Part shown: piece by piece, positions 1,922 through 23,797 of the stretch
How positions within the stretch are numbered: position 1 is the stretch's first letter
How the letters are laid out: the number at the start of each line of letters is the position of its first letter
UHGV virus genome: UHGV-0780004
Length of the DNA: 31,733 nt
Direction: 5' to 3' (one strand)
Origin: a virus
Made by a program: the position numbers and the translations under genes
Notes under the pieces: generated by a model
What the model was told of the DNA's origin: nothing
The model's input: only the letters and a program-made list of their open reading frames with translations
Databases searched by the model: none

Positions 1922-2031
1922 AGAGCCGCAGGAAAAATAAACCTATTACCAAAAGAAAACCGGGGCGGCCGAGCCTCTACACCGAGGAACTCGCCGCCGA
2001 AATAGCCTCCCGTCTTGCCAACGGCGAAACC

Positions 2032-2439
2032 ATGAAATCCATCTGCTCCGATGACCACATGCCGGAGGTCTGGACGGTCTGGAACTGGCGTGAAACAAAG
2101 CCGGAGTTTTCCAAACTCATTCAACACGCACGGGAAGCGCAGTCGGAAGCTATGATTGACGCCTGCCAGGAGCTGGCCGACGAAGCCGCGAAAGTCGCCC
2201 TTGACCCGGAATGCGGCTCCGCCTCCGTCGCCGCGAAGAAGCTCGCCATTGAAACCCGGCTGAAAGTCGCCGCCCGCTTCGCTCCTGATAAATTCGGAGA
2301 CCGGGTCCGTCAGGACGTCGCCGGCGTTCCCGGAGCGCCGCTGGAACGGAAAATCACGCTGGACCCTGAGCAGCTCGCCCAGCTGCAGGAAGACGAGAAA
2401 ACCGCGCTGGAAACCATCGCCGGCAAACTCCATCCCTAA
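2032..2439 (+). CDS. Terminase small subunit (HTH DNA-packaging protein). The conserved N-terminus is encoded in-frame upstream (1951..2031) without a canonical start.
   Basis: Translating 1951..2060 in-frame gives KRKPGRPSLYTEELAAEIASRLANGETMKSICSDDHMPEVWTVWNW, the classic terminase small-subunit N-terminal motif. The first ATG is at 2032, but an in-frame ATT lies at 1945. The stop codon is in-frame and contiguous with the terminase large subunit. Confidence 0.7.
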   Translation: MKSICSDDHMPEVWTVWNWRETKPEFSKLIQHAREAQSEAMIDACQELADEAAKVALDPECGSASVAAKKLAIETRLKVAARFAPDKFGDRVRQDVAGVPGAPLERKITLDPEQLAQLQEDEKTALETIAGKLHP

Positions 2440-2472
2440 CCCGTCAGGACACGAATCCCCGTCAGCTTCTTC

Positions 2473-3819
2473 TTGCGCCATATCCTCCGCCTTGACCCCT
2501 ATCCATGGCAGGTGGAGTCCATCAAGGCGTTGTCCCTGGGTAAGCTGACCCTGGGAGGGAAAAGCGTGGCTCTGGTCGCTCCTAACGGATCCGGCAAGAC
2601 AAGCAACTGCATCGCTCCCGCCATCCTGTACTTTCTCACCTGTTTTCCGCGGGGACAGGTCCCCGTTACGTCCTCATCGTGGATGCAGGTGGAAAAGCAG
2701 CTCTTTCCCGCGCTCCGCCGCTACATGGACAATCCTTTCTTTTCCGGCTGGACCTTCAACAAGACGGAGATCCGCACGCCGGAGGGAGGCTTTGCCGTGG
2801 GTTTCTCCACCGACAACGCGGGACGTGCGGAAGGATGGCATCCAAAAATCTCGCCCGACGTGGATCCTGTCTTTTACGTCCTGGACGAGGCCAAAACCAT
2901 TCCGGACTCCATCTTCACCGCCGTTTCCCGCTGCACGCTCTTTCACGCGTTCATCACCTCGTCGCCGGGCGCCGATTCCGGCACCTTCTACGACTGCTTT
3001 CACAAAAATTCATCGCTCTACTACAAAATCCGCGTCAAATACGAGGATTGCCCGCACATTGAAATCAACGACCCGGGCAAGGCCGAACGCCTGAAAAAAG
3101 AATATGGTGAGCAGTCCTCCTTCTACCGCTCGGCCATCCTTGGTGAATTCACCGACCTTGACGGACAATCCGTCATTTCCCGCCGCGCTCTCATGGAGCT
3201 GGTCAACAACCCGCCTCCCTTCCTGGACACCGGAGAGACCTGCGGCGGCTTCGACTTTGCCGCGGGAGGCGATGAAAACGTCTTTGCGGCCGGGCAGGGC
3301 AACCGTTTTTTCATCGCCGACCACTGGTCCGACCCGGACACCGTAGGAGCGCGCGGACGTTTCCGCCGGAAGGCCGCCGAACTCGGCATCTCTGCCGACC
3401 GCATCTTTGCCGACGGCGACGGCCTAGGGCTCCCCATCATTGATGACTTCCGCGCCGAGGGCTTTCCGGTGCACTCCTACCGCGGCGGGTTTCCGGCGGA
3501 TGACACACAAGCCTTTGTCAATCTGCGAGCCCAGGCATGGCGGGCTCTCGCCCGCGCCATCGAAGAAAAAGAACTCATCCTCGACATTGACGAGGATACG
3601 ATTGAGCAGCTGGTTGCTCCACGACTCCAAACCGACGCAATAGGCCGCGTCCGCATTGAAAGCAAAGAAGATATGGCAAAGCGGGGCGTTCGTTCCCCAG
3701 ACCGGGCCGACGCCCTTGTGATGGCCTGGCACGCGCGCCGGAACAGCGGACTGGCGCGGACGCTGGGAGACTGGTACGCCCGTCCCGTGTCATCAAAACG
3801 CGCTTACGGGAGATATTAG
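2473..3819 (+). CDS. Terminase large subunit (ATPase/nuclease)
   Basis: Walker A is VAPNGSGKT, Walker B is VLDEA. The length is about 448 aa. A TTG is the first available start after the in-frame TAA of the small subunit. Confidence 0.85.
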   Translation: MRHILRLDPYPWQVESIKALSLGKLTLGGKSVALVAPNGSGKTSNCIAPAILYFLTCFPRGQVPVTSSSWMQVEKQLFPALRRYMDNPFFSGWTFNKTEIRTPEGGFAVGFSTDNAGRAEGWHPKISPDVDPVFYVLDEAKTIPDSIFTAVSRCTLFHAFITSSPGADSGTFYDCFHKNSSLYYKIRVKYEDCPHIEINDPGKAERLKKEYGEQSSFYRSAILGEFTDLDGQSVISRRALMELVNNPPPFLDTGETCGGFDFAAGGDENVFAAGQGNRFFIADHWSDPDTVGARGRFRRKAAELGISADRIFADGDGLGLPIIDDFRAEGFPVHSYRGGFPADDTQAFVNLRAQAWRALARAIEEKELILDIDEDTIEQLVAPRLQTDAIGRVRIESKEDMAKRGVRSPDRADALVMAWHARRNSGLARTLGDWYARPVSSKRAYGRY

Positions 3820-3872
3820 GGTTGACAACATATCAAGATATCAATATATGACGATATGTAAGCAATCGCAGG

Positions 3873-5321
3873 GTGGTGAAACGGTATCACGCGGGGTTCC
3901 TGTCCCCGAATCGAAGGTCCAACTCCTTCCCCTGCAACCACCTTTTCTTTAGCCTCAGGTTTAACGCCGTCAAAAATATCCTCAACGCCCCGAAGCTGGT
4001 AGCCCAACAGGAGACCAGAATCAAGGAGCTTGAAACGGACCTGGCCCGGCGAGCGTTGACGGAACAGAGCCGGAAGCCTAACCAGCCTCAATGGTACGAA
4101 TATTGGGACCCGTTACAGGGCGCCGACCTGCAAACCCTGATTGACGCCCGGAACGAAGCGCGGCGTGGAGCCTTTGCCCGCCAAATGCTCATTTGGGACG
4201 AGGTCATCTACTCGGACGGCTTGATGGGCATGCTCTATTCCCGGCTCATTGAAAGCGTCTCCATGCAGGGATGGAAGATTGACGCCGCGGACGACAGCCC
4301 GGAAGCCCAGCGTCAGCAGAACGCGCTGGAAGAATTCTATCACTCCGTCACCGGACTTCAACAGGCCTTTGGGCAGTTGGCCTCCGCTATGTTTTACGGG
4401 TACGCCCACCTCCAATACATCGAAGATTCCTGGGGCCGCCGCTTTGAATTCATCCCGCAGCGATACTGGGTGCGGCCCGGAGAGCTGAACGAATGGCAGT
4501 TTAATCCCCAGTGCTACATCGGGGTCGACACGGGCGAGAGCGTAGAGGAAGAAACGCTCGTGGTCATGGAGCACCGGAACCCCATTCTTTTTCCGGCAAC
4601 CCGCGCCTCTTTTGAGCGGAATCACGCCAAAGTTACGTGGGACAACCATATGGACCGCTACGGGAGCGCCCCGGTCATCATCACGGCGCCCAAGGACGCG
4701 AGCGCCGCCGTCATGGACGCGCTGGAACGGGCCTGTGAGGAACTCAAATCGGGAGCCTCCATTGTGCTTCCTCCCGGCTGCACCGCCGAACCGTTGAAAG
4801 CCTCCAACATCAACGAAAACTATTTCCTATCCCGAATCAACATGTCCGACAAGGACCAGGTGCGGTTTGTAATGGCCGGCACTCTGACCGTCCTGAATGA
4901 ATCAGGATCCGGCACGCTGGCCGGGGGAGCGCACACGGATAGCTGGAATTCGGTCGTCTCCGCGGTCTGTTCCAAGGTCGCCGAAGCTTTTAACGCCGCC
5001 ATCAGCCCGCTTGTCCTGGGAGACGGCGAACCGCTGGCCCGCCTCCACATCACTTTTGACGCCGTCCAGACCCCGCTGCAGAAAGCCGAGGAAATCGCCG
5101 CGCTTGCCGACGGAGGCGTCCGCCCCGAGAAGACCGAGATTGAAGAAAAGATCGGCATGTCGATCGAGGACACGCAGGACCCCGTTCCGGTGACGGCGGC
5201 GGCCAACAGGGAACCGGAAAAAGCACTCATTCCGCCCGATGCTTATGAACAGCTTCAGCAAATGATTTACGCCGGACTCATGAAAGGATTTACCGATGAT
5301 CAGCACGAAACAAATCAATGA
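3873..5321 (+). CDS. Portal protein (Mu gp29 / DUF935-like)
   Basis: It is 482 aa and follows the terminase large subunit. It sits upstream of a Mu protease I homologue. The annotated start is GTG, and the true start is uncertain. Confidence 0.6.
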   Translation: MVKRYHAGFLSPNRRSNSFPCNHLFFSLRFNAVKNILNAPKLVAQQETRIKELETDLARRALTEQSRKPNQPQWYEYWDPLQGADLQTLIDARNEARRGAFARQMLIWDEVIYSDGLMGMLYSRLIESVSMQGWKIDAADDSPEAQRQQNALEEFYHSVTGLQQAFGQLASAMFYGYAHLQYIEDSWGRRFEFIPQRYWVRPGELNEWQFNPQCYIGVDTGESVEEETLVVMEHRNPILFPATRASFERNHAKVTWDNHMDRYGSAPVIITAPKDASAAVMDALERACEELKSGASIVLPPGCTAEPLKASNINENYFLSRINMSDKDQVRFVMAGTLTVLNESGSGTLAGGAHTDSWNSVVSAVCSKVAEAFNAAISPLVLGDGEPLARLHITFDAVQTPLQKAEEIAALADGGVRPEKTEIEEKIGMSIEDTQDPVPVTAAANREPEKALIPPDAYEQLQQMIYAGLMKGFTDDQHETNQ

Positions 5322-6858: not shown

Positions 6859-6929
6859 CTATTAACCCCAACCAACAGAAAGACCAAGAACAAGGGCTAC
6901 TCCATTTTGCTCCGCCGTTCAGTTCACCG

Positions 6930-7819
6930 ATGTCCTGACCTCCTATTCCGCGGGGTCCGGGAACACCGAAGAGAACTCCATCATCAGCCGCATCGCTCCG
7001 ATCGTCCCGGTCTATGACCTGAATTTCCAGTACAAGGTCTGGGACACGGAATCGGCCTTCACCGTCCAGCCCATCCAGGTGGGGCCGGGCGAACCTCCCC
7101 GCCAGACCGTCCTGCGCGGAAGAAACGAAACCGACACCCTTCAGGGCTACGGCTTGACGCTGCCCATCCCTGACGCCTTGCTGGGCGTCAACCGGGAAAA
7201 GGCGCAGGCCATCACCCTGGCGGAATACAAACTCATCGAATCGCAGTTCGTCACTTCGTACGAATACGAACGCGCCAAGCTTCTGATGAGCCAGCTTCCG
7301 GCCGCTTCCGGCATGGGTGACTGGGCCAACCAGCAGAAAAACCCGTTGGCGGACCTGGACAAGGCAATCCTGTCCATCAATGCCGCAACCGGACACATGC
7401 CGAACACGATTGTCTTCGGCATCAACGCATGGCAGCTGCTTCGCTCCAACACGCTCGCGCGTCAGGTGGTTTCCTTCAACAGCGTCGGCCTGTTCAACGA
7501 AGACCTTCTTCGCATGGCTCTGATCCGTCCTATCCGGGATATTTACATCGCGTCCATGCCGTACCGCGACGCTTCCGGCGACGCGAAAACCATCATGGAA
7601 AACGAAGTCTATGTCCTGTACAAGGAAGACTCCCCGACGCAGTTCGACGCCTCCGCCGTCAAGACCTTCGGTCTTTCCGGCAAGCTTCGCCGAGAAGTCA
7701 TTACCGAATACAAGCCGACGCCGGCCTTGACGCTCGTCACAAACCGCGTCTACTCGCTGACCAAGTTGACGAACCCCAGCGCCATCGTCCGCATCGACGC
7801 GACGGCCACCGGCGATTAA
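6930..7819 (+). CDS. Major capsid protein (Mu gpT-like). The start is unresolved. The coding frame is open from 6866, and the first canonical in-frame start is GTG at 7079.
   Basis: The frame gives a protein-like N-terminus, LTSYSAGSGNTEENSIISRIAPIVPVYDLNFQYKVWDTESAFTVQPIQ, upstream of GTG 7079. An ATG at 6930 lies in the -1 frame and reads ATG TCC TGA. The size of about 296 aa fits HK97-fold capsid proteins. The gene follows the protease and DUF2190 genes. Confidence 0.55.
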
Positions 7820-11067: not shown

Positions 11068-11174
11068 CCATTTCCAGCACCAGGGCTACTACATACGATC
11101 CCACATTCACAAACCGCAATGTTACGCCGCAGATTACCGGCGTTCTGGCGATTTTCCTCCCCGACGGCATCAAG

Positions 11175-11732
11175 GTGACCGAAGACGGGGGAGTTTCCTA
11201 CGTCACCGGGCCGGACCAGTTTCCGACGCCTCCCACGGCTCCGCCCGCCGATCCGACAGCCGGGCCTGAACAGCCCTGGGTGAGTTTCGGGCTTTTGGGG
11301 GCTTTCCAATCCGTCGCAACCCAGGTCGAAGGAGAAGTGACGCGCTTTTACGGCGGCGCGCTGGGCTACCGCCAGCAGCGCAAGAACACGACGACCGGCA
11401 AGCGGATGACCTTCACCACGCCGGACATGTCCCCCGAATGGTTCCAGCTGTCTTTCGCTCTGGGAGCGCCTCCCTCCAATGGAGAGGAATCGACTACCGT
11501 CGGACATGGCGGCGACAACAAGATTGAGGGGTATCTTCACTTCTGGTATCAGAACGACGTGGGTACTATCTATCTGGTCGGAACGGCGCATGGCGCCTTG
11601 CGCCTCCTGCAGGATCCCGAACACACCACGGCGATTGCTTCACCCCAGTTCGAGTTCGAGATGGATTATCGCGGCAAGTACCAGTTCACGCCCTCCAATG
11701 TGCAGGACGAGACGCCGGCGCCGGGTTCCTGA
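11175..11732 (+). CDS. Putative tail component (major tail-tube candidate). The coding frame is open upstream from 11031 with no canonical start before GTG 11175.
   Basis: The ORF is 185 aa. The in-frame upstream peptide TYDPTFTNRNVTPQITGVLAIFLPDGIKV looks coding and contains ATT codons at 11070 and 11133. A strong terminator-like hairpin follows the gene. Confidence 0.35.
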   Translation: MTEDGGVSYVTGPDQFPTPPTAPPADPTAGPEQPWVSFGLLGAFQSVATQVEGEVTRFYGGALGYRQQRKNTTTGKRMTFTTPDMSPEWFQLSFALGAPPSNGEESTTVGHGGDNKIEGYLHFWYQNDVGTIYLVGTAHGALRLLQDPEHTTAIASPQFEFEMDYRGKYQFTPSNVQDETPAPGS

Positions 11733-11744
11733 CGCGTTTCACCA

Positions 11745-11779
11745 GGGGGCGCGCTGCGCCCCCGCATCCTCTTTTTTTT
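11745..11779 (+). terminator. Candidate intrinsic terminator/attenuator: GGGGGCGC-gct-GCGCCCCC followed by T8
   Basis: An 8-bp GC stem with a 3-nt loop is read directly. The T-run at 11772..11779 starts 8 nt after the stem, which is slightly distal. Confidence 0.45.
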
Positions 11780-11839
11780 CTCAGGCAGCAGGCAGGCAAA
11801 TACGATATCCGGACCGTCACAGGGCTCAACCAGTCCCTC

Positions 11840-13420
11840 GTGATCCGTATTCTGGACTTCCATGGCGACCCAGTTGATATGACAGGGGTGACGCTTCGGG
11901 GGGCTATCCGTCTCAAAAGCGGCATCACGGAATTTGGATATTCCACGGATGATGACGGCAATGGCGTGATCTCCTGGGAATCTGTCCCTCCCGGCGCCTG
12001 GGCCTACGATGTTTTTATGGACAGAAATGGAGATGAATCTCCCCTTCTGCGCGGATGTTTCGTTTCAGCCGGACGCGTGACTCCTGACTTGCCTGGCGAA
12101 AAACAAGCGATTGCCGGCGCCGTCATTGTCAATCTGCCCGATGGAAACGGATGCGTCAACGTACTGTTGGGAGGAGACTCCTCTGCCGCCTATTACGCGG
12201 AGCAGGCCAAAGAGGCCAGCAACGAAGCTCAACAGTCCAAGGAAGACAGCCAGAAGGCGGCGGAAAACGCCGGCCAATCCGCAGAATCCGCAGAAGATGC
12301 TGCCAAACGGGCCGAAGACGTTCTTGCTGCTATGCCTGAAATAGATGCCGAGGGCAATATGACCCTCCAGGGCAATCTGGCGGCCAAAGGAGCTGTGTTT
12401 ACCGAGCTAGTTACATGCGGAAAAGGGCTTTCTCTTCCCGGCGGGGAGAGAATTACATTAAGTAATGGGGGAGCAACAATTTTCGCAAATGAAAACAACG
12501 CTACCATACGCGTCCCCTCCCTTGCTTCTGCAGGAGAAATATCCGGCAATGCCGTAAATTGTAACAGGGTTGCTGCTTCTACTTTATCCATCAGCACGGC
12601 GGCTACTTTTGGAGGCACGATTAACGCCAACGGGGGTGTCAATATTCCAGTAGTGCCATCCACTGACACGGAGGCGGCCAGATTCCGCGAGGTGCAGCTT
12701 CTTCAGGAGATGGAGTTTTCTCCGTTGAGGACTTATTTCAAGTCTCCCGACCCTGTTCCCTTTGGCGTGCTTCTGGACCGTTTTTGGTGGGCTGCCAACA
12801 GAGATAATATGCCGGCATGGACAGTAGCCACGGCCGAGTTTTCCCAGATCAGTCCTGACTATTTCAATTTCGATTACGACAGCTTGACGAGTTGCTATTT
12901 TCCGATGTCCTGCGGTTTGGGGTTTGGACGGTGTTTCGATTCCATCGCCATCGGCAATGTTGCTTTCAATGCGGATTACGCGAGCCTGGATGGAGATCCG
13001 TTTGTCACGCCCGCGGATTATATGAGGTATTGGGTTGATGTTCAGATTGGCCGTCCGGCCAATGCTCAGTGCAGCGTGTTTGTCCGCATGTTCTGGTGGG
13101 ATCGTGGTTCCAACAGTCTCGTCAATACCGAGTATCGCTCTTCAGTTCCTGACAGTCTTGCGTTGCGGGGGGTGGCCTTGTCCATGACGAGTGAGTTTTC
13201 CGGGGTGTGGCTGGTTGGTTTTGATAAGAAGGTTGGCCGTCTTGTTTCCTATAAGGTTTTGCCGGAGACGTTTGAAGGGAGTTCCTATCGTGGGGTACTA
13301 TCCAATAATAGATTGTCTCTGGCAAAGACAGGATGGCATGCGGCTATGGGAGTCCATGCTCCCCGGTATTATGGAGGGACTGTTGTGGGAGAGTGGTGCA
13401 GTTTGATTCAGGCCAGTTAG
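11840..13420 (+). CDS. Tail fibre-like protein (526 aa)
   Basis: It has an Ala/Gln/Ser/Glu-rich coiled stalk, YYAEQAKEASNEAQQSKEDSQKAAENAGQSAESAEDAAKRAEDV, typical of phage fibre shafts. The C-terminal domain is Trp/Phe-rich and may bind a receptor. Confidence 0.45.
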   Translation: MIRILDFHGDPVDMTGVTLRGAIRLKSGITEFGYSTDDDGNGVISWESVPPGAWAYDVFMDRNGDESPLLRGCFVSAGRVTPDLPGEKQAIAGAVIVNLPDGNGCVNVLLGGDSSAAYYAEQAKEASNEAQQSKEDSQKAAENAGQSAESAEDAAKRAEDVLAAMPEIDAEGNMTLQGNLAAKGAVFTELVTCGKGLSLPGGERITLSNGGATIFANENNATIRVPSLASAGEISGNAVNCNRVAASTLSISTAATFGGTINANGGVNIPVVPSTDTEAARFREVQLLQEMEFSPLRTYFKSPDPVPFGVLLDRFWWAANRDNMPAWTVATAEFSQISPDYFNFDYDSLTSCYFPMSCGLGFGRCFDSIAIGNVAFNADYASLDGDPFVTPADYMRYWVDVQIGRPANAQCSVFVRMFWWDRGSNSLVNTEYRSSVPDSLALRGVALSMTSEFSGVWLVGFDKKVGRLVSYKVLPETFEGSSYRGVLSNNRLSLAKTGWHAAMGVHAPRYYGGTVVGEWCSLIQAS

Positions 13421-14712: not shown

Positions 14713-14774
14713 CCAACTGTAAAGTTTTTCTTACAAGTTCCACTATATTAACAATCAACCATTAAAGGAGAATA

Positions 14775-15308
14775 ATCAGGAAAATAGCTATTGATATAGG
14801 CCATGCCAACAACACCGGGGCCCGCGGGAACGGGCTTGAAGAACACGCCGTCGCGGCGACGATCGCCGAACGCCTCGCCCCCATGCTGGAACGGCTGGGA
14901 GCCCGGGTGGATGTGATCGACTTCCCGAAGATGACCAATTCCCAGGACTTGAACGCCACCGTCAAGGCCGCCAACGAAGGCGGCTATGACTTCGGAATTT
15001 CATTGCATTGCGATTCGTCCGACAATCCCCAGGCTCATGGCGCTCATGTATGTTTCTACCCGGGAAGCGTCAAAGGAAGCCGGTTGGCCATATGCATCGC
15101 GGAACCTCTTGCCCGGCTGCTGCCCGGACGGGCCAACACCGTGCAGTCGCGTCCGGGACTGGCCGTCCTGAAAAAGACCCGCTGTCCGTGGGTGCTGTGC
15201 GAATGTGGATTCATCACCAATCCTGAAAACGCCTCTATTTTGAAGGACCATCCAGGACGCGTTGCCGAAGCCATTGCGGAAGGGGTGAAGGACTATATCA
15301 ACCAGTAA
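14775..15308 (+). CDS. N-acetylmuramoyl-L-alanine amidase (Amidase_3, endolysin candidate). The conserved N-terminus lacks a canonical start.
   Basis: The in-frame peptide KIAIDIGHANNTGARGNGLEEHAVAATIAERL (14781 onward) is the Amidase_3 N-terminal signature. A strong AGGAG motif lies at 14766..14770. The only in-frame start-like codons before ATG 14883 are ATC 14775, ATA 14784 and ATT 14790. Confidence 0.75.
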   Translation: MRKIAIDIGHANNTGARGNGLEEHAVAATIAERLAPMLERLGARVDVIDFPKMTNSQDLNATVKAANEGGYDFGISLHCDSSDNPQAHGAHVCFYPGSVKGSRLAICIAEPLARLLPGRANTVQSRPGLAVLKKTRCPWVLCECGFITNPENASILKDHPGRVAEAIAEGVKDYINQ

Positions 15309-17125: not shown

Positions 17126-17143
17126 CCCTCCACCTTTACCACC

Positions 17144-18991
17144 ATGGCCACCAAGAAAGAAATTGAAATCAAACTCAAGTCCACGCTGGACGGAAAAGGC
17201 GTGGAAGAAGCCAAACAGCAGATCGACGCGCTGAACAAGTCTACGGAGCAGTTGGATAAAAACAGCAAGCAGGCAACCAGGAGCGTGAAGAACATGGGGC
17301 AGGGGGCCTTGCAGGCTGCCTATTTCTTCGATGACTTGCAGTACGGCATCCGGGGCATCATGAACAACATTCCCGGGCTGGTGATGGGATTCGGAGGCGG
17401 CGCAGGTCTGGCCGGCGCAATGTCGCTTGCCGTTCTGGCCGGGGCGAAGCTTTACGATTGGATGGGGAACACGGAAGCGAAATCCAAAGAGCTTGCTAAG
17501 GCGATTGAAGAGGAAGCAGAAGCATTTAGAAAATTAAAAGCAGAGGTTGAAGAGACATGGCGGCAAAATCAAAACGAGCAAATTTTAAGAGAAGCTTTAG
17601 ATAGTGCAAAGAAAATAGCTGATTATCGAAAGCTGGAATCAGAAGCCTTAAAATATTCTCTGGATTATCGTAAAGAATTGATTTCTTTAGAATCAGGAAT
17701 CAAAGACGATGAAGCAGAAATTGCCCGATTAAAGGTAGAAGAAGATTTTGCAAATGGACTATTAGGAGAAGGATCAGATGCAGAACGAAGAAAAGCACGT
17801 TTGTTGGAAGGAATTGAATTAGATAGTCGTGCAAGGAGAAGAGGAGAAATAGAAGAATCAGCAAGTTTGGATGTATCGGATGCAGTAAATAAAAGAATAG
17901 ATGCAGCACGAAGACAAAGAGAAGCTAAGGCCGCCTTGCAAAACGCATCTATTAATGATGATATAATGACCCTGGAAGAGAGACGAGCTGCAGAAGTTTC
18001 TGTAGAAGAACAGACTAATTCATTGAGAAATGACTTATACGATTATTTAATATCTTTAAGGGATAAAGAAGTAAATTTAGGGGCTATTAGGTATAAACAA
18101 GTTAGCGATAAAAATATTTATGATGCAGTATCTCAATTTGTTGGCGGTAAAAATATATCTGATAGAAGAATTTCATCCTTGCTTGATAAATATGGTTATA
18201 TCAACGCAGAAGATAGAAGAGATAAAATATTTAACACAGAAGAAGCCATAAAGAAGAGTGATATTGCCCTTGAAGATAGCGGATTCTCTTTAGGTAATGG
18301 AACTTCTGGCGAAGGTGGATATAGTAATGCCTATGCATCTTATGCAAAAACTATAGAAACTCTTGAAAAAGAATATGAAGAGGCGGAAAAATCTCTAATA
18401 GAAGCTATAAATGAAGAAGAAAAGGCAACGAGAAACTTTTCTAATATAAAAAAGAAAAATGAATCGGAAGCGGCAGTTGATGAACAACGAGGGAGGACCG
18501 CTCAAGCGCAAGAGAGAAAATCCATTAGAGAAGAAAGACAAAGAGAAGACGCCGAGAATGAAATTAAGGGGCGAAAAAAAGATATAGATAAGAAAACAGA
18601 GGAACTTAAAAAGAATAATGAGTATTTTTCAGAGGCTGTAGATAGGTTTATAGTGGAGGCTGGAAAATCTGCCACTGACCAACAAAAGGCACTTGTTAGA
18701 GCTGCATCTGAAGCTATACGTGGACAGGTGAAGAAAGCCGCTTCCGATGGAGTAATAGATTCTCGAGAATATGAACAAATTGGAATAGCGTTTAGAGACG
18801 CCTTAAGACAACAGGGCATTACTAATCAATCTATATTGAACGGACTTTCCGGAAACATGAAAGAAGCTCTATTACTGATTAACATTCAATCAGGAGAACT
18901 AAAAAATCTAAAAAACGGTTTGGATCAAATGAAAAAAGACTTAGAACAAGCTAAAAACAATATAGAGGGCTTAAGAAGAAGAAAGCATTGA
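17144..18991 (+). CDS. Tape measure protein candidate (615 aa). The N-terminus has hydrophobic Gly-rich segments, and the rest is a long charged coiled coil.
   Basis: The N-terminal segment is GLVMGFGGGAGLAGAMSLAVLAGA, followed by long Glu/Lys/Arg-rich helices. The position fits a tape measure. From about 17470 onward the gene is markedly AT-rich. Confidence 0.5.
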   Translation: MATKKEIEIKLKSTLDGKGVEEAKQQIDALNKSTEQLDKNSKQATRSVKNMGQGALQAAYFFDDLQYGIRGIMNNIPGLVMGFGGGAGLAGAMSLAVLAGAKLYDWMGNTEAKSKELAKAIEEEAEAFRKLKAEVEETWRQNQNEQILREALDSAKKIADYRKLESEALKYSLDYRKELISLESGIKDDEAEIARLKVEEDFANGLLGEGSDAERRKARLLEGIELDSRARRRGEIEESASLDVSDAVNKRIDAARRQREAKAALQNASINDDIMTLEERRAAEVSVEEQTNSLRNDLYDYLISLRDKEVNLGAIRYKQVSDKNIYDAVSQFVGGKNISDRRISSLLDKYGYINAEDRRDKIFNTEEAIKKSDIALEDSGFSLGNGTSGEGGYSNAYASYAKTIETLEKEYEEAEKSLIEAINEEEKATRNFSNIKKKNESEAAVDEQRGRTAQAQERKSIREERQREDAENEIKGRKKDIDKKTEELKKNNEYFSEAVDRFIVEAGKSATDQQKALVRAASEAIRGQVKKAASDGVIDSREYEQIGIAFRDALRQQGITNQSILNGLSGNMKEALLLINIQSGELKNLKNGLDQMKKDLEQAKNNIEGLRRRKH

Positions 18992-19024
18992 AAAAAAATG
19001 AGGATATTGTAAATTCCCAAATTT

Positions 19025-19432
19025 ATGCGGTATCACTATTTTTCCGGAAATGTTGTGAAGGGACCTATTGTTCTTACCGAGTTAAGAAGGTTAGTCGAGA
19101 GAAACATAATTTCTCCCGACACGTTAATTTGCGCAGAAGGTACAAAAAAATGGGTCAAGGCTTCGGAATTGTTATTTTCTTCTTCATTATTGAGGGAAAA
19201 TAGTGGGATCATGCATTCCCCTAATAAGGTTCCAACTTGCAAAGAAAGTCATTCTGCTCTTGCCACAGTCCTCGTATTCTTAGCAACATTGTCAGTTGGT
19301 GGTGGAGCAATTATGGGAATAGCAAGTTTTATATCAGGCTTATCTATGGCTGGAATAGGCTATATCGTCGGGGGGGTAATTGGTGGAATTATGTGGTATA
19401 CGTTTTATGTCCTATTAAGCAAAAATAAATAA
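19025..19432 (+). CDS. DUF4339 (GYF-like) domain plus glycine-zipper membrane protein (135 aa), a moron candidate
   Basis: The N-terminal segment YHYFSGNVVKGPIVLTELRRLVERNIISPDTLICAEGTKKWVKASEL matches the DUF4339 pattern (YY...G...GP......L......TLVW.eGm..W). The C-terminal segment GGGAIMGIASFISGLSMAGIGYIVGGVIGGIMWY is a glycine-zipper TM. The gene lies inside the AT-rich insert. Confidence 0.5.
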   Translation: MRYHYFSGNVVKGPIVLTELRRLVERNIISPDTLICAEGTKKWVKASELLFSSSLLRENSGIMHSPNKVPTCKESHSALATVLVFLATLSVGGGAIMGIASFISGLSMAGIGYIVGGVIGGIMWYTFYVLLSKNK

Positions 19433-19537
19433 CTAGGACAGGTAAACGCATTGCCGAACCAGGCAAGATACGGTAACATCAAGCCATAACATAACCATTT
19501 TACAAGCAGCAGGAACCACGACATCACCATCAATGAC

Positions 19538-21673
19538 TTGCTGGGCCTCAAGCCGTCCAGCCTGACCCACGACCAGCAAAGTTTTTCCGCCTCCACCATT
19601 ACCGCGATTTATCCTGTCCGGACGCTCGGAGAAACTTTGCCGTATAATCAATTTGACACAGTCTCCATATCTAGGGATGGCGTTGCCATCCTGGTAGGAT
19701 TAGTGTCCTCCGTCGAAAAAGTGTACAGCGGGCAAGCGCGATCCTGGAAAATTGTTTTCTCAGACCCTTGGTATTACCTGGAAAATTGCTATGCCCTTAA
19801 GGGCGGATGGCGGCCTGTCTACAATCTCTATGCCTCCGACAACGTCATCCCCAAAGCCAAAATCAGCGATGCCATTAAAGGGGTATTAGACACGGCCAAG
19901 CACCACCCGGCCACGTATGAACTGCGGATCAACGACGACAAATTAATAATCCCCTGGAATGCCTCATGCGATACCATAGGCAGCCTGCTTCAATCTATCC
20001 GTCGATGGTCTCCTCGCATGGTCAGCTACTACGACTACAGCGGCAATCAGCCCAAGCTCATTATCACGGACTATGACTCTTTGGAGCCTATATCGATGCC
20101 CTTGCAGCCCACGGACACCGTCAAGAGCATTGACGTTTCCCTCTCTCCTCGCGGCGATCTTGTGCCGCCTTGCGTCGCCATTGTCGCAGACACCAGTGGA
20201 AGCAGCGGCTACAATGTCTCTTACCTCTCCAGATATCCGGCTGACGGCGATCCTACGCTCCCCCACTCCATTGTTTACCGGGTTGCCTCTGATTTTTATT
20301 ACTCCAAATACAACTCAGACGGCTCTGCCGCATCCGAGCCCGTTCCTGTGTCATCCACCAGGTCGGGCAGTCTGGCCTACCAGCGAATGAAAATCCGCGG
20401 CCGCCAGATCAACCAATCCAGCATGATCACCAGTTTCTGGGAGCGTCACTTCCCGTGGATGCAAGAGCTTGAGGCTGCCAACCAAATAATACCGTATGCG
20501 GCGCCGTCTATCACCGGAAAGGCATGGGATGGAGCAAGCGGAGAGGATGAGCCGAAAGGATATGACACATCAGCAACAGGGTTTGAACTGGTCGAAGGTC
20601 AAATCCACACCAAGGCCCTCAACCCTAAATGGTGCAAGACTACCATCAAGCAGCGGCTCTGCATCCCGGAATCTGCTCCTGCCCAGTGGAGGGATAAATT
20701 CAAAAACATCGGCACCATCGGTACCACCACGGTGTACTGGCAGGAATTTGCCGTTGACCTGGTCACGATGGACCGCGCCTACTCTACTTATCCGATCGAT
20801 GGCATGTACAACGGCGAGCAGCCCTCCAATGAGGATGATGGCGGCGACGAGCCTGCTGATGGCGTGCCATATGCGGACATTGCCCGGGCCGTATGGGAAT
20901 CCATGCAAGAACTCCCTTACGATGGGGACATCGCCTTCGCAGCTCGTGGCGGCGCTCAAAACTGGCAGTATATGGGACGGCGCGTATCGCTGACCGGAGG
21001 AAACCCTGAATGGGAAAACATCAACACGCTTGTCCAGACTGTCAGCCATGATTTACAGACAGACGTTATTACTCTTGCCTATGGGGCAGCAAACCAACTT
21101 GGAGTCGAAGATTTATTGGAACTAAATCAAGTAAATGCTATATCTCGGCAATCTTCCTCTTTAGAAAACATGCAGGGCGCGCCCGAACCCGGCGACCTGA
21201 CGTACGACCCCAAGCCAGAATCCCCGACCATCAGTCAGCAAATAACCGCATCCACCGGATCTTCCGAGCCGGCTCCTGAATACGGATTCCAAATACGTCT
21301 TGAAAAGGACACCAGTGGAGCTGTCACCGGTGCGAGTATCAAACCCGGCGCCATCTACCTCAACGGCTCGTTCCTGGGAATGTATCCGGCCGGCGCCGGA
21401 TCCGGATCGTCCTGGGTGAAAATCCCGGTCACGGCGGGGGAAGTATGGCTGAACCTCCACTTTGACCAAGACGCGAAACTGGACACCTGGGATATTTCCG
21501 GCATTCCCGGGCCGGTATATCCAATTTTCCTCAATACTGAAAAACCCAACGTCGCGTTTGACTACGCCTTCCATGTAGCCGACATCGATGGAGACAAGGT
21601 AACGCAATATGCCCTCGGCATGATCCAGGTGCCCGTGTTCGGCGGAACCTTCTATCCCTACGGCCCGTCATGA
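19538..21673 (+). CDS. Large distal tail / baseplate protein (711 aa; Dit/Tal-like position)
   Basis: It is a long ORF directly downstream of the tape-measure region with a TTG start. No enzymatic motif was recognised. Confidence 0.4.
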   Translation: MLGLKPSSLTHDQQSFSASTITAIYPVRTLGETLPYNQFDTVSISRDGVAILVGLVSSVEKVYSGQARSWKIVFSDPWYYLENCYALKGGWRPVYNLYASDNVIPKAKISDAIKGVLDTAKHHPATYELRINDDKLIIPWNASCDTIGSLLQSIRRWSPRMVSYYDYSGNQPKLIITDYDSLEPISMPLQPTDTVKSIDVSLSPRGDLVPPCVAIVADTSGSSGYNVSYLSRYPADGDPTLPHSIVYRVASDFYYSKYNSDGSAASEPVPVSSTRSGSLAYQRMKIRGRQINQSSMITSFWERHFPWMQELEAANQIIPYAAPSITGKAWDGASGEDEPKGYDTSATGFELVEGQIHTKALNPKWCKTTIKQRLCIPESAPAQWRDKFKNIGTIGTTTVYWQEFAVDLVTMDRAYSTYPIDGMYNGEQPSNEDDGGDEPADGVPYADIARAVWESMQELPYDGDIAFAARGGAQNWQYMGRRVSLTGGNPEWENINTLVQTVSHDLQTDVITLAYGAANQLGVEDLLELNQVNAISRQSSSLENMQGAPEPGDLTYDPKPESPTISQQITASTGSSEPAPEYGFQIRLEKDTSGAVTGASIKPGAIYLNGSFLGMYPAGAGSGSSWVKIPVTAGEVWLNLHFDQDAKLDTWDISGIPGPVYPIFLNTEKPNVAFDYAFHVADIDGDKVTQYALGMIQVPVFGGTFYPYGPS

Positions 21674-22609: not shown

Positions 22610-23797
22610 ATGGCAGGGATTATCAAAAGAAGTAATAAATGGGTGGCCGTCTTCAAGACGCTCGACGGTAAAGAGATCAGGAAAACTACCCGTGTCGACG
22701 TGGTCCCAAAGGTTATTCCACCCGGGACAAATAAAAGAGCGCTCATAGCGCAAAACGAGGCCAGGGCTCGTCTTATTGCCGAGGAGCTTGAGAATGGACA
22801 CAAGACCGGCTTTATTGACTCGCAGCGGCTCAAAGCTATAGCTGGCGGAGATGTTCAGGCGGCCAGCCTTGGCAGAAAGGTTGTGAGCGTTGGGGCGTAT
22901 CTCCATGAATGGTTGCAATCACGATCTGGCAAGATTCAGGCTTACGAAAGAGACGGGAAGGCCGTCAAGCAGTTTATTTTGTTCTTGAGGAACGATGGGG
23001 GACAGGCAATAGCATCCATCAATAAAGACACCGTGAGACGATTTGCGGAGACAGAAATGGAGCGCGTGTCATCCGGTACAGTCTCAAGGTATCTTGAATC
23101 TCTTTCCTGTGCGTTTAACCAGGCGGTGGAAAAAGAATTGATCATCTCCAATCCTTTCAGGGGGGCTCGACTGGATAAGAAAAAAAAGCAAGACGATAAA
23201 CAGGAGCGTAGTGCGTTCACCGTGGAAGAGGTGAAAAGACTGGTGGAGATTTTGCCGGGGGAATGGCCGGATATGATACGTGTATGCCTTTATACGGGCG
23301 GCCAGCGTCTTGGAGACATTGCCACTCTCAGATGGGAGCAGGTGAATCTGGAGGGCGGCTTAATCTCCATGACCTCGCAAAAGACCAAGCGGCGTATGAA
23401 CAAACCAATCATCGGGCCGCTGAAAGAGATATTGAAAGAGAGGGAAAAGTATTCCATCAATGAATTTGTGTTCCCCTTGGCCGCCATGAAGCATGCACAG
23501 GGCGGGGGGAAGTCCAGCAAGCTCTCTCTTGAGTTTACCGGACTACTGAAAAAACACGGCATGATTTCTTCCGGGGAAAGGAAAGTGCCAGGCGATAAGC
23601 GTGTGCTGTCTGAAAAAAGCTTCCACAGTTTGAGAGCCACCGCAGTGACGATTTTAAGACTGGCAGGCGTGCCGGCGGACTTGTGCCGTTTCATTGTAGG
23701 GCATGATTCTGAAGAGATTGAACGGGTGTACTTTCGGCCCGATTCGCAGGATGTCGTTCACGCAATGGAGGAAATATCCAGCAAGATTATTTTGTAA
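22610..23797 (+). CDS. int: Tyrosine-type site-specific recombinase (phage integrase)
   Basis: It has an N-terminal SAM-like domain. The catalytic region carries R (GGQRLGD), H-x-x-R (HSLRAT), VGH and Tyr (RVYFRP). It is 395 aa. Confidence 0.9.
   Translation: MAGIIKRSNKWVAVFKTLDGKEIRKTTRVDVVPKVIPPGTNKRALIAQNEARARLIAEELENGHKTGFIDSQRLKAIAGGDVQAASLGRKVVSVGAYLHEWLQSRSGKIQAYERDGKAVKQFILFLRNDGGQAIASINKDTVRRFAETEMERVSSGTVSRYLESLSCAFNQAVEKELIISNPFRGARLDKKKKQDDKQERSAFTVEEVKRLVEILPGEWPDMIRVCLYTGGQRLGDIATLRWEQVNLEGGLISMTSQKTKRRMNKPIIGPLKEILKEREKYSINEFVFPLAAMKHAQGGGKSSKLSLEFTGLLKKHGMISSGERKVPGDKRVLSEKSFHSLRATAVTILRLAGVPADLCRFIVGHDSEEIERVYFRPDSQDVVHAMEEISSKIIL

Follow-up and report, generated by a model that had tools for sequence, protein, structure and literature searches.

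To our knowledge, translation initiation in bacteria and their viruses uses AUG, GUG or UUG read by tRNAfMet(CAU), and the changes of the phage code that we know of concern stop codons. In work by Borges et al. and Peters et al. from 2022, suppressor tRNAs of crAss-like and Lak phages reportedly recode stop codons, with the recoded codons concentrated in late structural and lysis genes. The AUU start of infC is a near-cognate codon read by the normal initiator tRNA. A GTC start is reported for Streptomyces sigR (PMC5472188). In engineered Escherichia coli, an initiator tRNA with the anticodon CCU and an AGG start form the most robust non-canonical pair across strains (10.64898/2026.04.16.719103); further orthogonal initiator tRNAs are reported to have been engineered in this species (10.1101/2021.05.25.445580, PMC11744186). 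Here we describe UHGV virus genome UHGV-0780004, a phage genome of 31,733 nucleotides (31.7 kb, G+C 54.6%; this whole stretch is called the window), in which AGG codons appear to serve as start codons decoded by an initiator-type tRNA(CCU) that the phage itself encodes. We give this reading a probability of roughly 0.8. The engineered CCU/AGG pair works in E. coli, so the mechanism is feasible. Slightly less firmly, we consider it likely that a family of temperate gut phages has in this way naturally reassigned AGG as a start for its packaging, head, tail and lysis genes by means of its own initiator tRNA(CCU).

The analysis is based on capsid-bearing relatives gathered from IMG/VR (42 contigs), the genome of Akkermansia phage DTMo-2021a (CP084202.1) and 54 metagenome contigs. 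The 5' region of the capsid gene was compared in 19 unique variants, and the conservation of AGG was counted over 94 tRNA-bearing loci, or over fewer where a gene was scored in fewer. The features at the capsid start are the following:

6893..7819, + strand: major capsid protein gene, 308 codons, predicted AGG start, TAA stop; PHROG 1005
6893..6895, + strand: AGG at the capsid start position; AGG in 93 of 94 tRNA-bearing relatives, ATG there in L044, L045–L047 and L048
6877..6884, + strand: purine-rich block AGAAAGAC, 9 nucleotides (nt) 5' of AGG 6893; invariant across clades, including L044 with its ATG start
6930..6938, + strand: out-of-frame ATG-TCC-TGA, overlapping the capsid codons GAT GTC CTG ACC (D-V-L-T)

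An earlier note on this DNA had reported that the capsid frame has no canonical start, and we find the same: the frame (position mod 3 = 2) follows a TAA at 6863–6865, is open from 6866 to 7819 with its stop TAA at 7817–7819, and has as its first in-frame ATG, GTG or TTG the GTG at 7079, codon 72 of the open frame. The ATG (6930–6932), TCC (6933–6935) and TGA (6936–6938) to which the note drew attention do sit in a frame other than that of the capsid. One start-less stretch of about 60 codons is by our estimate only mildly unusual by chance (a few percent), and chance would also lead one to expect an out-of-frame ATG with a stop behind it. The open frame is that of the major head protein: it matches PHROG 1005 (E = 5e-18) from open-frame residue 21 onward at profile position 13, and the capsid must therefore start far upstream of 7079. 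A Pfam search with the window capsid gave no match; PF03864 (Phage_cap_E) is the precomputed Pfam assignment of close capsid homologues. The profile, together with the order of the genes before the capsid (portal, protease/scaffold, small protein), places it by prediction among the HK97-fold/Mu gpT-like major capsid proteins.

Concerning the start itself, variable sites in 6896–7078 are distributed over the three codon positions as 14/14/46, with no stops in the 19 variants; from this third-position bias it follows that the start-less stretch is translated. Just 3' of the purine-rich block, the L026 clade has a 1-nt indel, and the spacer upstream of about 6890 is therefore non-coding. The block, at whose position L048 has GAAAGGA, is the probable ribosome-binding region of the gene. 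A protein search returned mostly shortened public calls, plus three full-length relatives of 285–307 amino acids, P0006 (N-terminus MANLFYSAVQFTDVL), P0001 (MPNNFCTAVQFTDVL) and P0048 (MPNFCTATQF), and the genes of all three have ATG precisely where AGG stands in the window and in DTMo-2021a. The DNA at the start reads TAGAAAGACAATCAATCA ATG GCTAATCTATTTTAT in L044, TAGAAAGACCAACAACA AGG GCTAATCTATTTTAT in DTMo and CAGAAAGACCAAGAACA AGG GCTACTCCATTTTGC in the window, and the peptide (X)A-T/N-P/L-F-C/Y-S-A-V-Q-F-T-D-V-L persists even in homologues that are 57% identical and have ATG in place of the AGG. Because homologues carry ATG exactly there, the comparison fixes the capsid start at AGG 6893–6895; the predicted N-terminus of the window capsid is then X-ATPFCSAVQFTDVL. 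ATT, ATC, ATA or CTG initiation, which the earlier note had suggested, does not fit: the frame contains none of these codons from the end of the non-coding spacer to the conserved N-terminus, and AGG 6893 aligns with the ATG of distant capsids. Public capsid calls begin at GTG 7079 (246 amino acids, P0002) or at an internal ATG of the DTMo clade (278 amino acids, P0015, named major capsid protein), and public annotation leaves a 120-nt gap in front of the capsid.

The ATG-TCC-TGA is, as read from the variants, a by-product of the capsid codons without a function of its own, because ATG, TGA and CTG are lost while the peptide is kept: ATG 6930 is destroyed in 4 of the 19 variants, by a synonymous GAT>GAC or by GTC>ATC, TGA and the in-frame CTG are each gone in one (CTG>CTT; L019 has CTT), and T-D-V-L-T is retained in all 19. 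A programmed –1 frameshift site was looked for at 6930–6938; the X XXY YYZ heptamer is absent, and start and shift site are not conserved. Several other candidates were rejected. A hop from TCC to TCC over TGACC would land on a codon that is GCC in the DTMo clade. CTG 6935 as a start is CTT in L019, and coding-type conservation extends further upstream; coding also extends upstream of ATC 6980 (ATG in the DTMo clade, ATT in the L026 clade), a position used by public annotation. Initiation in the +1 frame at ATT 6904 or TTG 6907 with a later shift, suggested by the spacing from AAGGG, was dropped since ATG homologues fix the start at 6893, and read-through of the upstream TAA is excluded by the 1-nt indel in the spacer.

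The earlier note had named other conserved genes with the same missing start, and this list can be extended. The genes with a predicted AGG start besides the capsid are the following:

1930..2439, + strand: small terminase (terS), AGG start; PHROG 1482 from open-frame residue 9, first canonical start at codon 36
2446..3819, + strand: large terminase (terL), AGG start; AGG in 87 of 88 tRNA-bearing relatives, ATG within 1–2 codons in L045 and L044
3957..5321, + strand: portal (Portal_Mu, PF06074), AGG start; AGG in 94 of 94, with the TTG start of L045 mapping exactly onto it
11082..11732, + strand: tail-region gene, AGG start; AGG in 72 of 73 relatives, with the ATG of L045 mapping exactly on AGG 11082
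11783..13420, + strand: orf11783, a large late gene, AGG start; the ATG of L045 maps on 11783, AGG in 68 of 68 relatives
14778..15308, + strand: endolysin (Amidase_3), AGG start; AAGGAG at 14765–14770, Pfam Amidase_3 position 1 being the residue right after AGG
19511..21673, + strand: orf19511, 720 codons, possible further AGG start; alternative start TTG 19538

AGG is thus the predicted start of at least seven late genes (terS, terL, portal, capsid, tail gene, orf11783 and endolysin), and relatives have ATG or TTG in its place. If a start-less open frame is read from its upstream stop, AGG comes before any ATG, GTG or TTG. The codon shows the features of a start as judged from the alignments: it is homologous to ATG, it stands behind a ribosome-binding region, and no canonical in-frame start lies upstream. 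The clearest case of AGG against ATG is the amidase, where the window has AAGGAG-N7-AGG and DTMo-2021a has AAGGAG-N7-ATG in an otherwise near-identical context (taaaggagaataatcAGGaaaatagct vs taaaggagaatactcATGaaaatagcc; the longer reads are taaAGGAGaataatcAGGaaaatagct in the window and taaAGGAGaatactcATGaaaatagcc in DTMo); among tRNA-bearing relatives, the amidase start codon is AGG in 21 and ATG in 7. The tail-region gene begins MATTLSPDYANRNV... in L045 vs RATTYDPTFTNRNV... in the window. The small terminase has a mosaic upstream context in relatives, and conservation starts exactly at AGG AAA AAG. The portal AGG stands 17 nt after the tRNA, and the length of this spacer varies among relatives, so that it is non-coding. 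In orf19511, AGG is the first start-like codon, also in DTMo-2021a, with one synonymous change between AGG and TTG.

Three side observations concern these genes. A second in-frame AGG at 11744, 13 codons before 11783, aligns with the ATG of L044 and is AGG in 27 and AAG in 2 relatives. Most AGG starts are preceded by tracts rich in pyrimidines and have an invariant C at –1 (YnCAGG; e.g. 3941–3956, 11765–11782), the rest of the upstream sequence being highly variable. Public calls of the packaging and portal genes are N-terminally shortened: terS 135, terL 435 and portal 397 amino acids, or 484 for the portal where it is fused with the tRNA (P0002, P0015, P0033, L267).

Based on codon counts, AGG is rare inside the genes and concentrated at their starts. 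It makes up 11 of 4490 internal late-gene codons and 47 of 8746 overall, and terS, terL, capsid, tail gene and amidase contain no internal AGG. In contrast to 11/4490, AGG is found at 7 of 17 late-gene starts (binomial P = 1e-14), and this multi-gene pattern is far beyond chance; on this point the earlier note was right to regard the missing starts as systematic, that is, as non-canonical initiation rather than random decay. All genes with AGG starts are late ones (packaging, head, tail, lysis), whereas the assignable early starts (integrase, exonuclease, others) are ATG or GTG. The presence of the tRNA goes together with the AGG starts: all 94 tRNA-bearing loci have them. L045 and L046, which span the terminase–portal junction, lack the tRNA and have canonical starts throughout. 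In portal, capsid, tail gene, orf11783 and amidase, the start of L045 falls exactly on the window AGG; in the large terminase it lies no more than 2 codons away, and the ATG starts of the remaining L045 genes map on window ATG. In L044, which has the tRNA, the start position holds ATG for capsid and large terminase and AGG for terS, portal, tail gene and orf11783, so that genomes with the tRNA exchange the two codons freely. Internal AGG use in the window is no higher than in the tRNA-less L045, which argues against a role of the tRNA in codon supply.

The tRNA, a key element that the earlier note does not mention, lies between the large terminase and the portal:

3867..3940, + strand: tRNA with anticodon CCU (reads AGG), initiator-type; ARAGORN, Rfam tRNA 52.7 bits
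3821..3866, + strand: TTGACA plus palindrome (ACATATC...GATATGT), between the terminase stop and the tRNA; conserved in all relatives

It is the only tRNA found in the window by ARAGORN, which labels it tRNA-Arg, and by Rfam, and its sequence is CGCAGGGUGGUGAAACGGUAUCACGCGGGGUUCCUGUCCCCGAAUCGAAGGUCCAACUCCUUCCCCUGCAACCA. It has C1xA72, G2:C71, C3:G70, A73, G29–31:C39–41, G37 and an encoded CCA. The marks of bacterial initiator tRNAs are C1xA72, G2:C71, C3:G70, A73 and the G:C stem, which serve formylation, EF-Tu exclusion and IF3/P-site selection. In 15 sequence variants of the tRNA, 20 of 21 pairs are always paired, 8 pairs show compensatory changes, and the anticodon is CCU throughout, the CAU of initiators being absent from all of them. 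The 1:72 mismatch is C.A in 15/15; the stem of three G:C pairs (GGG:CCC) is found in the window and in 11/15; among the formylation determinants, G2:C71 is present in 14/15 (one G.U), C3:G70 in 15/15, and A73 and CCA are invariant. Compared over 71 positions, the window tRNA shares 51 with E. coli tRNAfMet vs 38 with E. coli tRNA-Arg(CCU), both references having been checked in E. coli genomes. Its resemblance to an elongator tRNA-Arg(CCU) ends with C35 and U36: 1:72 is mismatched, position 37 is G and position 20 is U. It is best named an initiator-type tRNA with a putatively reassigned anticodon and not tRNAfMet.

This combination is rare. Among 468 non-CAU tRNAs predicted by ARAGORN in the window and 120 IMG/VR loci, the window tRNA is the only one that combines C1xA72 with a GGG:CCC stem, and none of the other 467 has C1xA72. 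G37 is set against A37 in 113 of the 115 other tRNAs with an NNU anticodon. No CCU was found among the sampled IMG/VR initiator tRNAs with a canonical acceptor stem. A pattern search open to any anticodon gave 116 of 120 IMG/VR matches with CAU by strict parsing, and the other four were not valid non-CAU initiators. The 5' half of the tRNA was found in 43 IMG/VR contigs of the phage group and in one GTDB species representative, a metagenome-assembled genome of Akkermansia muciniphila.

Upstream of the tRNA, the element at 3821–3866 contains a hairpin (dG –12 kcal/mol, z = –3) and could act on the tRNA as a promoter/operator or direct its RNA processing; a scan for a consensus sigma-70 promoter upstream of the tRNA gave no call, though TTGACA is conserved. 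Pairing of G37 with the mRNA base at –1 was considered and is unsupported: C(–1) is invariant at 7 of 8 AGG starts vs 5 of 9 ATG starts (Fisher P = 0.29), and the clade with an A37 tRNA retains C(–1), so covariation is absent. Two further observations concern tRNAs of this kind. At 1052–1123 of L172, some 100 nt 5' of an ordinary initiator tRNA(CAU), ARAGORN finds a Lys(UUU) tRNA with an initiator-like GGG:CCC stem, A73, U1:A72 and U37; it may be a pseudogene, or another derivative of an initiator with an altered anticodon. In the single metagenome contig L258, phage homology begins inside the 3' end of the tRNA at position 7021 (window 3927) and the 7 kb upstream are unrelated. The junction is explained either by chimerism of the assembly or by recombination or truncation at the tRNA.

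In the mechanism that we propose, the tRNA would be transcribed together with the late genes or alongside them and then processed. It would be aminoacylated, most plausibly with arginine via C35/U36, and the host formyltransferase would accept it via C1xA72, G2:C71, C3:G70 and A73. Through its G:C-rich anticodon stem it would be admitted to the ribosomal P site by IF2 and IF3, and there it would pair perfectly with AGG behind ordinary ribosome-binding regions. AGG would thereby be efficient as a start only in cells containing the phage tRNA. We infer charging, formylation, use in initiation and a regulatory purpose from sequence features; candidate purposes are to gate the translation of late genes or to free the phage from the host initiator tRNA.

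A number of points weigh against this reading. Methionyl-tRNA synthetase requires the anticodon CAU, the main element recognised by E. coli arginyl-tRNA synthetase, A20, is absent from the tRNA (U20), and formylation of an aminoacyl group other than methionine can be inefficient. Not all initiator features are present: position 11:24 is U:A in 15/15 variants instead of A:U (U11:A24 also occurs in at least one IMG/VR initiator tRNA(CAU)), most variants have C55 in the T loop and the variable loop has 4 nt, both off the initiator consensus, and the G:C pairs of the anticodon stem are not invariant, with A29:U41 in 2/15 and U31.G39 in 2/15 variants. Before the capsid AGG there is only a weak Shine-Dalgarno-like element. 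The tRNA-less control is a single related lineage (L045–L047). Finally, the tRNA lies within the same gene block as the genes that it would gate, and the selective advantage is not obvious.

The rival explanations differ in what they make of the tRNA and of the frame upstream of GTG 7079. One of them, which we consider unlikely, takes AGG as a weak near-cognate start for the host tRNA(fMet) and the phage tRNA(CCU) as an elongator tRNA-Arg supplying a rare codon. AGG is one position off AUG, and the native initiator tRNA is somewhat promiscuous (10.64898/2026.04.16.719103); tRNA-Arg genes are also frequent in phages, and the ARAGORN label agrees. An elongator would, however, not be expected to keep C1xA72 invariant, with a G:C-rich anticodon stem and G37 in place of A37. 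The 1:72 mismatch disfavours EF-Tu binding. The codon to be supplied is moreover very rare inside the genes and no commoner than in the tRNA-less relative. As a weak start, AGG would be extremely inefficient and ill suited to the major capsid and six other late proteins, and tRNA-less relatives have canonical starts at the same positions. Very unlikely in our judgement is a capsid whose translation begins further downstream in frame, at GTG 7079 or ATC 6980 (ATG in the DTMo clade), with the upstream stretch, including ATPFCSAVQFTDVLTSYSAGSGNTEENSIISR, untranslated. The public calls of 246 and 278 amino acids place the start there, but the coding-type substitutions and the stop-free frame in 6896–7078, the N-terminal peptide kept in homologues that start with ATG at the AGG position, and the PHROG 1005 alignment from residue 21 all speak for translation further upstream, and the same explanation would be needed separately for six further genes.

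That the element is a prophage in decay, with the starts of its late genes lost, deserves still less credence. Many copies are indeed prophages in Akkermansia genomes, yet one codon, AGG, stands at all affected starts and is kept between clades whose proteins share 70% identity, purifying selection acts on the genes, which have no internal stops, a complete phage genome record exists (CP084202.1), and random loss would not yield one codon that matches a co-resident tRNA. Hardly credible, and the least probable of these explanations, is a programmed –1 frameshift from the mini reading frame at ATG 6930 or a 1-bp sequencing or assembly error, ideas that the earlier note had put forward, or else a short hop from that mini frame. 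It is true that re-reading one base joins ATG-TCC-TGA to the capsid frame and that in the window an in-frame TCC 5 nt downstream would permit the hop; the comparative data refute this, in that relatives lose the ATG, the TGA and the CTG and keep D-V-L-T, the landing TCC is GCC in the DTMo clade, a slippery heptamer is absent, and coding-type conservation lies upstream of the ATG. An indel or assembly error is excluded, since the same organisation is found in more than 100 contigs from independent assemblies, in the isolate genome CP084202.1 and in the chromosome CP048438.1. Decoding of AGG by the phage tRNA(CCU) is the reading that we retain.

The window is collinear with DTMo-2021a and a circular permutation of that record, with 75% identity over the capsid region and 79–85% over long collinear blocks. 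The same layout is found in the complete Akkermansia chromosome CP048438.1 (L267, 68639–89475), and many copies of the element are prophages inside Akkermansia genomes. The host is Akkermansia muciniphila and the phage is temperate; it is found commonly in human gut metagenomes. Inducible prophages that form particles, of this or another family, are described in A. muciniphila YL44 (PMC8008629, PMC10197239). The head module is Mu-like (Pfam Portal_Mu, PF06074; Pfam Mu-like_Pro; PHROG 1005 capsid). Outside this module the phage is not a transposable Mu-like phage. A tyrosine integrase is located at 22610–23797, and a related prophage carries RecT/YqaJ/RuvC-type early genes. An island of low G+C at 17126–19432 holds two genes with a third-position G+C of about 0.32–0.34 vs about 0.7 in adjacent late genes and is rich in AGA codons (25 in orf17144); it resembles an insertion gained by horizontal transfer in the tail/late region.

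If the proposed reading is true, the phage has a natural orthogonal translation-initiation system in which late-protein synthesis depends on a tRNA made by the phage. Such a system could gate leaky late-gene expression in lysogens or protect the phage should the host initiator tRNA be lost; it would add a new level to the control of viral genes, would mean that start-codon identity can evolve, and would make an evolution-tested orthogonal initiation pair available to synthetic biology. There are also consequences for annotation. Gene callers shorten or miss such genes, as seen in the capsid of 246 or 278 instead of 308 amino acids and in the shortened terminases and portal. Start models that admit codons matched by a tRNA are needed both for annotating Akkermansia prophages and for finding systems of this kind. 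The host, A. muciniphila, is of medical interest. A literature search found no natural precedent of an AGG start with its own initiator tRNA, and no description of a start codon reassigned by a virus.

Compared with known systems, the Akkermansia phage shares single traits with each. With Mu-type phages it shares the order of the head module (portal, protease/scaffold, small protein, capsid), but it has a tyrosine integrase and RecT/exonuclease-type early genes instead of a Mu-like whole. Canonical initiator tRNAs (CAU) encoded by phages are common in phage and prophage contigs and differ from its tRNA by the anticodon; one IMG/VR initiator type has the same D arm (GGUGxAACGGUAxCAC) and 4-nt variable loop. 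As in infC and sigR, a codon outside AUG, GUG and UUG stands at a true start. In those two cases tRNAfMet pairs with a mismatch, and initiation is inefficient, IF3-dependent and limited to single genes, whereas in the phage the pairing would be perfect and the tRNA dedicated to 7–8 genes including the major capsid. Recoding of stop codons by phage suppressor tRNAs is the nearest natural analogy: a phage tRNA changes the meaning of a codon in late genes, whose translation comes to depend on it. There, however, TAG or TGA is read as an amino acid, in elongation and termination, while here a sense codon would be used for initiation. Like the initiators engineered in E. coli, among them also the amber initiator and i-tRNA-AAC, the phage system combines an initiator body, a changed anticodon, a complementary non-AUG start and a normal ribosome-binding site. 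Unlike them, it has a tRNA with a diverged body (A4:U69, U11:A24, G37, 4-nt variable loop), and the system, predicted from sequence, is natural, is found in Akkermansia and in many lineages, and would serve a defined set of late genes.

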